From Eledone cirrhosa (taxonomy: Eukaryota): a DNA stretch of 64,000 bases. Of the stretch, positions 32,437 to 59,150 are shown piece after piece. Where the stretch lies: positions 61,938,001 through 62,002,000 of the forward strand of contig OZ024745.1 in NCBI GenBank assembly GCA_964016885.1. Direction: 5' to 3'. The position numbers and the translations under genes are program-made. Within the stretch, counting starts at the first letter, position 1; each line of letters starts with the position of its first letter. The notes under the pieces were generated by a model that saw only the letters and a program-made list of their open reading frames with translations, did not search any database and was not told the DNA's origin.

Positions 32437-32806
32437 GTAGGAGGTGAGTTTTATTGTAGTACAATAAAGCAATGCAGATATCGGATAAGAAGCACTCTAC
32501 AGTTTGTGGAACTGGAGTATGCATAATATAAGATCAAAAGATGGTTAAAGGAGTTCAATATATTTTATTATGCGCATTTCAAAAACAAACATCATCAAAC
32601 AATAATATTTGTGTTTTCATAATCCATGTTGTAGAAGAAGAGGTGAAGGACCATCAAAAGGTATCCAATATGAGAGTAAGCGCTCACCTCTTCTTCTACA
32701 ACATGGATTATGAAAACACAAATATTATTGTTTGATGATGTTTGTTTTTGAAATGCGCATAATAAAATATATTGAACTCCTTTAACCATCTTTTGATCTT
32801 ATATTA
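32437..32806. mobile_element. Fold-back of the family A pLTR
   Basis: Arms ~32523-32646 and 32684-32806 are reverse complements and match 2323-2420; the left arm extends to the pLTR end at 32437. Confidence 0.85.
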
Positions 32807-33048
32807 TATATATATATATATATATATACATACATATATATATATATATATATATATATATATATATATATATATACATACATATATATATATATATATA
32901 TATATATATATATATACATACATATATATATATATATATATATATATATATATATATATATATATATATATATATATATATATATATATATATACATATA
33001 TATATATATATATATATATATATATATATATATATATATATATATATA

Positions 33049-34395
33049 TGATGGCTGCCCCCTCGTTATCGAGTATGGCCATTGCACGAGAAAAAATAAA
33101 TAAAAATAATAATAATAATAAATAAATAAATAAAAAAAAGAAAAAAAAAAGAAAAGAAAAAAAGAAATATATATATATATATATATATATATATATATAT
33201 ACATACATACATATATACATACACACATACATACACATACACTCACACATACACACACATACATTAATAACAATAATAATAATAATAATAATAATAGCAA
33301 TAATAATAATAACGACAACAACAATAATAATATACATATTCATATATATATACACACACACGCTCGCACGCACATAAGCATATCTACACACACACACACA
33401 CACGATAGCAACTAACAGTGCTGCGATCGAATGTGGCTTTTCAGCCCAGCCAATGATCTAAAATGTCTTGCACAGAGTTGGCAACCAAAACATTCACTGG
33501 GAATAGTTGGCTGTGGTTGGAATTCGTGTACTTTTGCATGTCGCTTGAGCCCTCCTGCTGATTTACATTCTCTACCACATGTTTGGCAAGCATGATGAGT
33601 AGCATCTCCAACAGCAGCCTGGTAGTCAACCACTGGTCTTACTTTATGACTGCGAAGATGACTTTCGAGTCCAGCTTTGCTTAGGCAGAGTCTCGCACAG
33701 ACGCTGCATGTCAGCACCATAGGAGGACCCTCGCCGTCTGGAAGTGCAACAGCAATGCCCTTCCACACATCCCGCTTTACTTTCTCGTGTGCGATTCGAG
33801 ATGCCTCAAAGGCAACTTTTCCCTCATATACAGTCTTTCTCCATTTATTACGATCAGCAGCAATATTTTCCTATGCATCAGCAGAGATGTTAGCGTCTTT
33901 CAGAGAGGCTTCCAAGGAATCCTTATACCTCTTTTTTGGTTTATGTGGCGGTCGTTTTCCTTTAACCAACTCTCCATAGAAGAGTTGTTTTGGTATTCTA
34001 GAATCCTTCATCCTGTCAAGGTGACCACTCCAACGGAGTCGTTGCTTAAGCACAAGAGCTTCTATACTGTCACACATAGAGCTTTCCAAAATCTCGACAT
34101 CACTGATGTGGTCCCTCCAGTGAACGCCATGGATCCGTCTGAGACACATCTGATGGAAACGCTCCAATTGCTTAAGGTGGCGTCGATATGTGACCCAGGT
34201 CTCGCAGGCATAAAGAAGACAAGAGAGTACACATGCCCTGTACACCTTTACCTTTGTCCTCCTGCATATGTCTCGCCGACCCCAGAGTCGCCTTTCTAGC
34301 TTTCCGAAAGCATCACTTGCTTTCCTAATCCTAAGTGAGATTTCACTGTCAAGGTTGCCGTATCGATTGACAGTGCTTCCCAGGTAGACAAAATG
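33049..34395 (-). mobile_element. RTE-clade LINE 3' fragment with three C-terminal C2H2 zinc fingers
   Basis: [59 protein letters not shown]; one in-frame TAG at 33871; then CSVC..HLRSH, CQTC..HAKVH and CQLC..HIRSQH. 3' hairpin CTCG-ataa-CGAG at ~33062-33073. Confidence 0.88.
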
Positions 34396-34702
34396 ATACA
34401 TACATATATATATATGCATACATATATATATACATACATATATATATATATAGATACATATATATATATATACATACATATATATATATATATACATACA
34501 TACATATATACATACATACATACATACATATATATATATATATATATATATATATATATATATAGGAAAAAGTATGACCCCGGGTGAAGAAACTTGAGCT
34601 GGGTGGAAAAGTCGGGATATGGCGTGGTAGAGTCGGAAAGTGCTCTACTACAGAGATAGGAGCTAAATCCCTTTGTTATATATAGATATATACATATACA
34701 CA

Positions 34703-35075
34703 TTACTCTATTACTCAACTACGTGTTCCAGCCTATAGGCTGAGGCTATCTGGGGCACCGCCATTGATGATACTCTTTCCATAGCGACCCTTCCCTTATT
34801 GTCCATTGATGCAAACGGGAGTTTTCTGCTCCCATCCTTATTTGCAAGATATCGGATGAGCTATGTGCTCATCCGAGATCTTGGTCAGTAGATTGTCGAG
34901 ATGTCTTTTGAAAACATCAACATGCACAGCATGTAGATCTCTAAGATGTTTTGGTAGGTGGGGTCCCTTGAACCCCAGGCTATTTCTGTATATGTTCTTT
35001 ATTCTTGATGCGACGGATGTGTTCTTTATTCTTGATTCTACATAGTGGCGTCTTGTTTGTGAGCTGTTCCTGCCC
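34703..35075 (-). mobile_element. 3' end of a CR1/L2-like LINE (diverged relative of 29098-29388)
   Basis: Translates RNSLGFKGPHLPKHLRDLHAVHVDVFKRHLDNLLTKISDE; 3' UTR GGCGGTGCCCCAG. Confidence 0.68.
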
Positions 35076-57100: not shown

Positions 57101-58664
57101 TATCATTGCTAAAAGAGAGAAGATTAAGTCCTAGATGCCTGTCAAAGATATATGTTTGAATTCAATTGTTTTCGCAACAAGTTTTCTATTTAAGGATCGT
57201 CAAGTAAGTAATTTAGGCGTAGAGGCAGAATATGAAAATTATATGATAGGGTGGAAAATCAGAAGCAACCAATTCTTCAAGCTATTATCACTTGAGAATA
57301 TGTCCTCCCCGCGGTGAAATAACCAAACGTCTGTAAATAACACAGTGTTTCTTTCCTTTCTGTTATTTATTGTACAACTTATCTTATCAAATTTCTCATA
57401 TAAGGCATAAAGAAAACATTCATGATAAGAACACTAAAAGAAATTACATAATGTAACTTAAAAGAGAAAACAATGTCATGCTTGCATAGTGGTTTGAGTA
57501 CTATAACCCACAGGTTATGAATTCAATATGAAGAAATTGAATTCCACGCAATGAAAGGCTGGATAGTAATACACAGTCGAAAATGTAATTGAGAGAAATT
57601 AGTCGAGATTCGTCACTTAAAAGACAATATCCTGTCGACTTCCAATTGGTTAAGTGATAATTACATTTTACCTTGATAAGTTCCAAGCCATATTTCGTTC
57701 GACTTTTTGAGACTACGCCATGTTTTATATTTATTATATAATAATATGTCAACCAATTCAAACTGAACGAAATCAATAAATACCTGTGATAATGGTATTG
57801 TGTATAATTTGTTTAACTGAACGGTTTTAATGGATGTAATGGATGTGAAAAGGGAGAGGCATTCAAGAGTGATAATTTTGATTGCTGCAAAGAAAAGGGC
57901 TCAGGTGTGAGCTTTGTTGCTTTTGCACGATTATAGAATAAGTCGTAATATAAGGAGTCAGCTGATCACGCAAGGTAAGGTTAGAATACAACAATACCAA
58001 CAATACAAAGTTAGAAAATAAAATAAACATTAAAGCAAAAAAAACAAAACATAAAAAAGGAAGCTAAAAACGGCAGGCGAACAAAAATAAAGAAAATAAA
58101 ACGAATGATTCCAGAATTCTATAGCATCTCTTTTATCACAATTGAAAAGCAATTTTTACATTACACGACATAACACTGTAACAAAATGAAGACACGAATA
58201 CATTCATAGATCGTTTTAGAAAATATCAAAACAAAACAAATTAGAAACAACAATAAAATAATAGAAATATACAGAAATACCTAAATGACTGCATATTTTT
58301 ATCAACTAAATTTAATTCGCCGCGCACACAATATATATGTATGCGTTATTTTGGGGTGTATAATTAAAAAGCAAATGAACGCATTACAGTATTTATTCTA
58401 ATGCTATGGTTAGTCAATATTGCTATTCACTTGTTTCACGAACATTGTTATGTAAAACGGTGGCGTGGAGAGGAGGAGACTGGTATGCATGGGCGACTGC
58501 TGGTCTTCCACAAACAACCTTGCCCGGACTTGTGCCTCGGAAGGGAACTTCCTAGATGCAAATTCTATGGTCATTCCTGACCGAAGGAGGTCTTAACACA
58601 CACATATATATATACAGTATATATATATATATATGTATATATATATATGTATGTGCGTGTATGA

Positions 58665-58790
58665 GTCCCGGGTTCAATCAGGGGTAACCACGGTAAAGTA
58701 CTCAATACATTAGCAGAGTGTATACAATAAATTAAATATAGAATGAAACAGTTCTAGTCCTGTAGAAGCCATTTCCATATTAAATTTGTT
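58665..58790. mobile_element. Family F remnant with internal inversion
   Basis: GGTAACCAC..GTACTCAATAC followed by AGAATGAAACAGTTCTAGT as in 46845-46863. Confidence 0.65.
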
Positions 58791-58823
58791 ATATATATAT
58801 ATATATATATATATATATATATA

Positions 58824-59150
58824 TAAAGAAAAATAGATGAAATCGAAAATGCAACTGGAGTCTTATTTTTAAAAAAAATATATATATTTATTTGGTTCCT
58901 TTACCGGTTTCGCAGTTCTTCTGCTTTTCAAAAGTAGAGTTGAGATGGAGGGTCTGTGGATTTTCTCACATCAGATGTGAGAAAAACCACAGACCCTCCA
59001 TCTCAACTCTACTTTTGAAAAGCAGAAGAACTGCGAAACCGGTAAAGGAACCAAATAAATATATATATTTAAAAAAAAAATAAGACTCCAGTTGCATTTT
59101 CGATTTCATCTTTTTTTCTTTATACTTTCACTCGTGTAGGACACCTCGGT
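58824..59150. mobile_element. Near-perfect 300 bp palindrome with HHR 3' half
   Basis: Arms 58824-58972 and 58974-59123; GAAACCGGTA at 59035-59044; tail CACTCGTGTAGGACACCTC. Confidence 0.8.

Follow-up and report, generated by a model that had tools for sequence, protein, structure and literature searches.

Hairpins formed by head-to-head 3' ends of Penelope-like elements in the Eledone cirrhosa genome, and their turning points relative to a predicted transcription start

Palindromic fold-backs in the window

The window analysed here is a stretch of 64,000 nucleotides (nt) of the Eledone cirrhosa genome (NCBI GenBank assembly GCA_964016885.1, contig OZ024745.1, positions 61,938,001 to 62,002,000 of the forward strand), and it carries a series of palindromic fold-backs, in each of which we identify, by its sequence, two 5'-truncated 3' ends of an endonuclease-positive Penelope-like element (EN+ PLE) placed head to head. 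The host genome spans 3.0 Gb and is rich in (TA)n. Seven such fold-backs had been described in the original prediction, and all seven were recovered where it had placed them, adjoining (TA)n and with an extra tail on one arm. Self-BLAST of the window was used to find the head-to-head pairs among the arms, and six families were named: F1 (58826), F2 (53381), F3 (39554 and 50836), F4 (46796), F5 (47140) and F6 (32437). The view that the fold-backs come from unrelated families did not survive this comparison, since the copies at 39554 and 50836 both belong to F3, F1 and F2 are 74-75% alike across 109 nt, and F3 and F4 have tail motifs in common.

The F1 hairpin (58826..59153, plus strand), the 3' end of a Neptune-type PLE, comprises a short arm (58826-58972), an axis base at 58973, which is the A of a CAG and the predicted transcription start (+1), and then the long arm and a tail that is broken off at 59153 and measures ~62 nt in other copies. 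Where this tail breaks off, ~570 nt of purine-rich sequence lies between the two copies of a 29-nt direct repeat (59151-59179 = 59719-59747), and the tail is not resumed after the segment. The sister family F2 is represented by a hairpin at 53379..53764 (plus), with its axis base at 53570, likewise the predicted +1, and a tail at ~53719-53757. F3 contributes a minus-strand hairpin at 50761..50931 (the copy at 50836), whose tail occupies 50761-50835 and whose long and short arms begin at +3 and +19, and a plus-strand member of a diverged subfamily at 39554..39689 with a shortened tail (39644-39689). The F4 hairpin (46796..46960, plus; tail 46892-46960) has its axis near 46843, in the loop of hammerhead stem II at ~+20, and the F5 hairpin (46977..47379, minus; tail 46977-47139) has arms that start at +23 and +74, inside a long stem II and its loop and downstream of the parent's CTGATGA.

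The F6 hairpin (32437..32806, minus; tail ~32437-32518) turns near 32686, in a leader outside the ribozyme, and both of its arms have one internal junction in common, at which the leader of the open reading frame (ORF), with the start codon, meets the hammerhead core midway. This junction (in 32609-32721) occurs once in the DNA examined; because both arms share it, the template itself would have been permuted, whether as a deleted tandem, by a template jump or as an RNA circle. Smaller relatives include a decayed F4 pair immediately left of the F1 hairpin (58666..58793, minus) and an F3 mini-hairpin (3063..3181, minus) with 18-bp arms, a turn near +37 and a full tail. A further TA-flanked fold-back family, F7, lies at 37523-38351; it is tailed, is accompanied by a second partial direct copy and has relatives at loci L052, L073, L091 and L098.

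Abundance and ends of the hairpins

Fold-backs of these families occur far above chance expectation. In an evenly spaced sample of genomic stretches totalling 1.0 Mb (contigs C1-C5 only), we counted 134 arms and 30 head-to-head pairs of F1-F6, which occupy ~2% of the sampled DNA (19,983 nt of 1.0 Mb; 30 pairs per Mb), and one exact F1 junction has 499 copies in the genome against 0 for the reversed control. A genome search with an F1 query yielded 1,866 candidates; 40 of them were scored, and 30 loci were fetched. (TA)n or another microsatellite adjoins the short end in 29 of these 30, and the 62-nt tail has a common end in most of them, with one copy two-tailed. Pairs in the loci fetched for all families numbered 138, or 129 after removal of duplicates; 58 focal pairs, whose copies had been retrieved by a query from the same family, were excluded, so that 71 remained. 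Tails range from 50 to 165 nt across families and are restricted to one side in 62 of the 71 pairs.

[quoted passage not shown] That description holds as a resemblance only: MITEs have symmetric terminal inverted repeats, uniform copies and a related transposase, whereas here the parent is a retroelement encoding reverse transcriptase (RT), the ends are asymmetric, the junctions are heterogeneous and likely made anew in each copy, and the upstream promoter is missing. The idea that the hairpins are DNA-mobile units of this kind, or else artefacts of assembly or of chimeric reads, could draw on the single exact F1 junction found 499 times and on two-tailed copies (six of the 71 pairs, and the F1-type copy L021). 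We regard it as barely credible in view of the many distinct junctions per family, the asymmetric ends, the continuity with RT-coding parents, the halt of mirroring at the element's short end and the flanks that differ in 30 of 30 F1 loci. Four contig sets from the public runs of one study likewise show the parent promoter, short end and tail as loose ends; contigs cross the F1 axis, and among those listed none has 31 letters on both sides, so they provide no formal bridge.

Coding parents

Coding parents were identified for five of the six families; a GIY-YIG search returned 10,596 candidates, 150 of which were scored. The order in the parents is an ORF (RT, GIY-YIG), 3' untranslated region, promoter motifs, hammerhead arm, end site 2, tail and end site 1. 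The F1 arm plus tail is the exact 3' end, 0.8-1.0 kb beyond the stop codon, of elements at L085, L089 and L092, whose proteins carry a CxxxxCxxC linker as well as GIY-YIG at the C terminus, and the F2 arm is the 3' end of F1's sister PLE family (L081, L094 and others). The earlier proposal that the arms are PLE termini, namely pseudo-long terminal repeats (pLTRs) with hammerhead motifs, is borne out. At L194 the layout is pLTR, 938-aa ORF, pLTR; L198, L202 and L199 are each bounded by an inverted short end and, opposite it, a tailed end, with L198 forming a 5-kb palindrome that turns inside the ORF. Partial tandem pLTRs occur at L194 and L192 (F1) and at L228, L231, L237 and L238 (F6), and in the latter four the pLTR is direct and sense relative to the ORF. 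Across the loci, the features of EN+ PLEs are present: an ORF with RT and GIY-YIG, tandem pLTRs, an inverted 5'-truncated copy with a one-sided tail, and a hammerhead motif.

The F6 parent family is young, with 103 of 103 scored matches 98-100% identical and many of them retaining 821-aa open frames. One member lies in the window (5..2206, minus) as a 5'-truncated ORF of 733 aa with the RT motifs QFDIASYY and YRDD and a GIY-YIG-type motif; beside it, an inverted F6 pLTR with tail (2230..2507, plus) carries an intact canonical hammerhead with CTGATGA at 2319 and an 8-bp stem I. The short end matching this pLTR is ~1 kb beyond the stop codon, outside the window (L191). F3 and F5 sit downstream of ORF pieces that are 33-53% alike to the F6 parent protein (tblastn). 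Pfam placed GIY-YIG above the cut-off in the parents of F1, F2 and the test family F8 (see below), with RVT_1 at E 2-5e-6, slightly below the cut-off; on the F6 parent it returned nothing relevant, and the assignment of this parent, whose protein is 24% alike to that of F1 over 237 aa, is by motifs only. A Nematis-like affiliation of F3, F5 and F6, which we presume from a motif, serves as a lead only. A linker of the form CX2-5CxxC ahead of GIY-YIG, a feature of the Neptune clade (PMC8557442), was found in the F1, F2 and F8 parents, together with (TA)n targets.

The ORF starts 28 nt after the tail end in F1 (L194) and ~80 nt after it in F6 (L228). Both end sites of L194, and the short end of L228, fall on TA-rich words of the parent, which could let cut (TA)n pair with the RNA. 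ACTC stands 5-12 nt past the short end in all F1-F6 tails, the F1 and F2 tails carry a small GTGT-NNN-ACAC hairpin, and the F3 tail carries a GAGTACTC palindrome whose first part is common to F4; these motifs are possible signals for positioning RT. Two other classes were considered and dropped: a rolling-hairpin or HUH element, prompted by the ACTC near the tail starts, since the parents encode RT and GIY-YIG, and Helentron-associated elements, which have TT targets.

Hammerhead motifs in arms and parents

The hammerhead motifs of the parents are mostly complete by sequence, either canonical or in a known U3:A8 variant. They are recognisable in F1, F5, F6 and F8; F4 has the core with an imperfect helix I, F2 is a variant and F3 is degenerate. 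F1 carries a complete minimal type-I motif in which U3:A8 replaces C3:G8, a variant described for Schistosoma Cercyon PLEs (PMC4209133). In the window this motif occupies 59015..59044 (plus; core TTGAAAA, stem II GCAG/CTGC, then GAAA-CCGG-TA), with a mirror copy from 58931 on the minus strand. F2 combines U3:A8 with GCAA for GAAA throughout the family (L199, L204, L206, L081, L094) while keeping stem II and the CCGG palindrome; its window hairpin retains the motif in the left arm and has lost it from the right arm by an internal deletion. Stem II of F5 has 9 bp and a loop of ~55 nt.

All five motifs quoted in the original prediction are present, namely GAAATGCGCATA at 32750 (plus) and 32580 (minus), GAAACAATTGTT at 47307 (plus) and 47212 (minus), GAAACCGGTA at 59035 (plus) and 58911 (minus), GAAACGGCCGCA at 39590 (minus) and GCAACCGGTA at 53507 (minus). 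Their reading changes in part. GCAACCGGTA, taken there for a degenerate form, is the F2 family state and not a decayed copy, and the statement that the motifs lie near the turn does not apply to F1 and F2, where GAAA or GCAA is 62-64 nt from the axis. It was correct that no intact CTGANGA exists within the seven elements, but the 5' core is not generally missing: TTGAAAA is found in both F1 arms and in the left F2 arm, and the F4, F5 and F6 parents carry CTGATGA. The core is gone from the window copies of F4 and F5 by truncation, in F4 because the axis falls in the stem II loop, and from the hairpin at 32437 by its internal junction.

An Rfam scan of the hairpins gave no hammerhead among the best 150 of 497 rows, only sub-threshold microRNA (miRNA) matches. 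Minimum free energy folds recovered helices I and II for F1 and F6 and did not recover the hammerhead fold for F2 and F5, which proves nothing because such an outcome is expected for minimal motifs. An antisense hammerhead in F5 and F6 was dropped, as the direct pLTRs are sense to the ORF. A non-LTR retrozyme, which consists of head-to-tail tandem units each with a type-I hammerhead (bioRxiv 10.64898/2026.07.22.740005), was ruled out, since none of the seven elements forms a tandem array.

Position of the turns

The axis corresponds, in the F1 and F2 parents, to the A of CAG; a TATA-like box stands 30-32 nt upstream of it and is preceded by CCAAT boxes, and the F4 parents carry TATAAATA at -30 or -31. 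A TATA box with at most one mismatch stands at -30 to -32 in 2/2 F1, 2/3 F2 and 4/4 F4 parents, where the chance rate of TATA combined with a pyrimidine-purine start is 0.3-2% per position. For genome-wide counts, we ran exact-pattern searches with the hammerhead 3' half as anchor on both arms and binned the pairs by gap; on the F1 scale, a gap of 123 corresponds to both arms at the predicted +1 and gaps of 0-30 to stem II and the 3' core. The 2,603 anchored F1 pairs fell into bins of 21 (gap 0-30), 1,052 (31-114), 1,281 (115-129) and 249 (130-213); in the third, both arms end no more than a few bases from a single point, which lies 42 nt upstream of the core. Hand counts of the first 50 listed pairs in the neighbouring bins showed one arm reaching ~+9 or further in 41 (gap 31-114), and true read-through into the promoter in ~11 with filler in the remainder (gap 130-213).

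We chose F8 (L196, L200, L100; canonical hammerhead, core at +42), which is not among the families of the original prediction, as a test family because +1 elsewhere had been set after seeing the turns, and its +1 was predicted from TATA and initiator (Inr) motifs before mapping. With the same gap bins, the 1,392 anchored F8 pairs were distributed as 5, 335, 782 and 270. Of the first 50 pairs listed for the peak, 27 have their centre exactly at the predicted A; among fetched F8 loci, two of five pairs turn at the predicted +1. Turn points are strongly non-uniform in the other samples too, as had been anticipated: the end of the longer arm is no more than 7 nt from +1 in 45 of the 71 non-focal pairs, where the most generous uniform null expects 20.5, and in 23 of the 30 evenly sampled pairs (9.6 expected). 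The corresponding counts in the 71 are 10 for within 7 nt of mid-core and 12 for near the 3' strand of stem II, and in the F1, F2 and F6 subset (n = 22) +1, mid-core and stem II account for 8, 1 and 0. An axis at the predicted transcription start is therefore well supported for F1 and F8 and likely for F2 and F4, and it is not seen in F6.

The original prediction had expected the turns to cluster in the ribozyme, a folded hammerhead (stem II or core) forcing the cDNA to snap back and thereby setting the inversion point. Such junctions do exist: 21 F1 pairs (six of them clean stem-II fold-backs; ~84 with 5' core-edge turns added, an estimate from 3 of 50 listed), five F8 pairs, the window copies at 46796 and 47140, whose turns fall in stem II or its loop, and six of 19 F4 pairs at +12 to +22. 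In F3, moreover, stem II is degenerate and the peak falls in its loop. These are nevertheless a minority class, amounting to less than 1% of anchored pairs in both F1 (21/2,603) and F8 (5/1,392), families in which 42 nt separate the start from the core, and the F3 hairpins do not retain the loop, as a stem-II snap-back would need. For F1 and F8, the counts refute a ribozyme-set inversion point as the main rule, and we hold it to be very improbable as a general account.

The hard stop might instead mark a different fixed end of the RNA, or a block, at YAG; a splice acceptor, lariat branch or processing site would be examples. Some F6 and F9 arms may start at the ribozyme cut. Most +1 sites do read YAG, pyrimidine-rich tracts lie upstream in F5 and F6, three of 13 F6 pairs and the single F9 pair begin near the cut site, and the intron end of Drosophila virilis Penelope is reported to map to the 5' end of helix I (PMC4209133). 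Against this stand the TATA boxes at -30 to -32 in F1, F2, F4 and F8, the lack of a pyrimidine tract in F1 and F4, the CAG trinucleotides that the arms themselves contain, and the junctions listed, which have no common upstream exon. An F4 subfamily with G at +1, hence no AG, retains its TATA at -30, which speaks against a splice acceptor. We accordingly give this alternative little weight.

Junctions and a proposed origin of the hairpins

The junctions of the 71 pairs comprise 33 with overlap, 29 with filler and nine blunt. Junction polarity was counted by hand for the three main F1 junction classes in the first 100 of 978 matches, with one two-tailed locus excluded; the full-length arm is the tail arm in 47 and the tail-less arm in 17 (n = 64). 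With every family included, it is the tail-less arm that extends further in 31 pairs and the tail arm in 13, with 18 equal. We consider it likely that a hairpin represents two run-off cDNAs copied from the short front end of an RNA and linked through their 3' ends; in F1 and F8, the two families counted genome-wide, the axis sits at the predicted +1. We also lean, with less assurance, towards a scheme in which copying of sense RNA begins at two start sites and extends both ends of a single cut. As these sites are close downstream of the pLTR promoter, a common product would be a 'double strong-stop' hairpin whose axis would mark the start to the base. In retroviruses, minus-strand strong-stop DNA arises from a primer site near the RNA 5' end as a short cDNA ending at the transcription start; in the scheme proposed here, the equivalent would be primed at the target, would probably be synthesised two times, once in each direction, and would end up integrated as a dead-end hairpin instead of being transferred.

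In this scheme a promoter-retaining copy would give rise to RNA starting at the predicted +1, and because the RNA starts there, both RT start sites would be only 60-330 nt from its 5' end. The protein may then cut both (TA)n strands, with one cDNA primed at site 1 (tailed) and one at site 2 (tail-less), as suggested by the biochemistry of PAc, the Poseidon PLE of Anolis, which cleaves both strands and extends each of them, begins RT from two internal sites bounding the tail, uses uncleaved RNA and is predicted to be a dimer (PMC11167929). The observed arms stop at +1 or slightly short of it and seldom enter the promoter; the two cDNA 3' ends would be joined where they share 1-3 nt of microhomology, or else by way of a short templated filler. 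Copied intact, the ribozyme would be a passenger, and the product, lacking the upstream promoter, would probably be a dead end, whereas longer read-through RNAs could yield larger inverted units such as L198. The absent promoter, asymmetric ends and heterogeneous junctions together indicate that hairpins are likely made anew at each insertion. A turn at the start site implies a ribozyme that is usually uncut during copying, and uncleaved RNA is judged the likely template, in agreement with the original prediction.

A single cDNA could also be considered: primed at the tail site, it would run off at +1, fold on 1-2 nt and copy itself to site 2, and copies of opposite polarity would result from an inversion between the arms at a later time. 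A CATCTG-ended cDNA folding on its own C or CA would be expected to yield the three main F1 junction classes, and the tail arm is full-length in 47 of 64 F1 copies. The 17 copies in which the tail-less arm is full-length are of reverse polarity, which one snapped-back cDNA cannot make, and the snap-back alone, as first proposed, is thereby insufficient. The further reach of the tail-less arm in 31 versus 13 pairs, the 1-nt loop that the commonest junction class would require, the filler DNA in 29 of 71 junctions and the extension of both strands by PAc (PMC11167929) also argue against it, and we regard this route as unlikely.

Several points weigh against two joined cDNAs with an axis at the transcription start. 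The +1 is a motif prediction; it was fixed in F1, F2, F3 and F5 after the turns were known, and in F4 it was taken from the parent TATA, yet with approximate turns already known. F8 is the only prospective family, and two of its five fetched pairs were known to lie at +1 before the genome-wide count, while weaker prospective guesses failed in F9 (0/1, the pair starting at the cut site) and F10 (0/3). The longer-arm ends of the 13 F6 pairs are scattered (-250, -57, -41, -40, -38, -26, +2, +32, +80, +84, +86, +114 and +238), with three near the ribozyme cut site (+84), and the TATA boxes of F3, F5 and F6 have 2-3 mismatches. Since the predicted +1 of F3 lies inside the loop of its degenerate stem II and those of F4 and F5 are 6-7 nt from the core, these three families cannot separate the models, and the six F4 pairs turning at +12 to +22 also fit poorly. 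F4 has no linked coding parent, in that no same-strand ORF was found near five promoter-bearing copies in the DNA examined. Finally, the two F1 arms belong to the same subfamily in 28 of 30 copies, with six rare substitutions mirrored in both arms against 35 in one arm; this concordance implies one template or source, or later homogenisation, and a snap-back fits it equally well.

Arms begin within ~4 nt of the predicted hammerhead cut at L212, L217 and L223 (F6) and at L004 (F9), in families whose ribozymes are intact. These F6 and F9 arms hint that cleaved RNA is sometimes the template.

Relation to known systems

Much of the architecture is already published, including the inverted pLTR, the tail, the junction palindromes, the pLTR TATA and Inr motifs and the hammerheads, and the fold-backs are a very common PLE footprint of a known kind. 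As in Pen2a and Pen3a of A. vaga (PMC3846280) and other EN+ PLEs (PMC8557442), we find an inverted 5'-truncated copy, a tail at one end and a junction palindrome, along with TATA and Inr-like motifs in the pLTR and (TA)n targets. Compared with these units, as far as the published descriptions go, most of those reported here lack an ORF and measure 40-450 nt, their tails are longer (50-165 versus 30-40 nt), and their axis maps to a predicted +1. No report placing the axis of inversion at the start of the pLTR transcript was found in a literature search that missed most subscription papers, Repbase and supplements. Arkhipova et al. (2013) explained head-to-head palindromes by self-priming on an antisense template while leaving the question open (PMC3846280); the present hairpin data point instead to a sense template.

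The closest biochemical counterpart is PAc as described by Frangieh et al. (2024, PMC11167929), in which two internal RT start sites likewise define the tail and the target is AT-rich. Cutting and extension of both strands, with no need for ribozyme cleavage, are described for PAc and would apply to the hairpins as well; the PAc hammerhead overlaps the ORF start, whereas here the ORF begins after the tail. The hammerheads themselves resemble the minimal motifs that Cervera and de la Pena (2014, PMC4209133) reported from metazoan PLEs in their type-I form and palindromic loop 3, and paired minimal hammerheads 100-700 bp apart on opposite strands are known from that work. They differ from the motifs described there in the GCAA found throughout F2, the 9-bp stem II and ~55-nt loop of F5, and the degenerate state of F3.

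PLEs are the closest mobile relatives of telomerase, and the origin of their inverted pLTRs and one-sided tail is still open. What the hairpins offer is a base-precise stop at a predicted promoter +1 in thousands of copies, with one advance prediction borne out. If the proposed origin is correct, MITE-looking hairpins in their tens of thousands would be products of abortive retrotransposition that preserve a fossil map of PLE start sites, and an inverted pLTR would need no antisense template. The hairpins are prone to mis-annotation as MITEs or as miRNA-like, the miRNA models of Rfam scoring them below threshold. The need for a system in which to study the inverted pLTRs and tail of PLEs has been voiced previously (PMC8557442).

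Other features of the window

Much of the interval 2500-32400 is occupied by (TA)n tracts of up to 5.6 kb, and a 200-base N gap lies at 12772-12971. Fragments of an RTE-like long interspersed nuclear element (LINE) ORF with C2H2 zinc fingers, split by (TA)n, were observed at 33412-33870 and 33871-34400 (minus strand). A very abundant repeat resembling short interspersed nuclear elements (SINEs) has copies at 40821-41001, 46098-46228, 47877-47977, 49830-49933 and 53967-54130. Two imperfect inverted repeats of ~400-450 nt, nested and containing tRNA-like B-box words, occupy 51411-52553, and a related multi-copy structure is present in L062.

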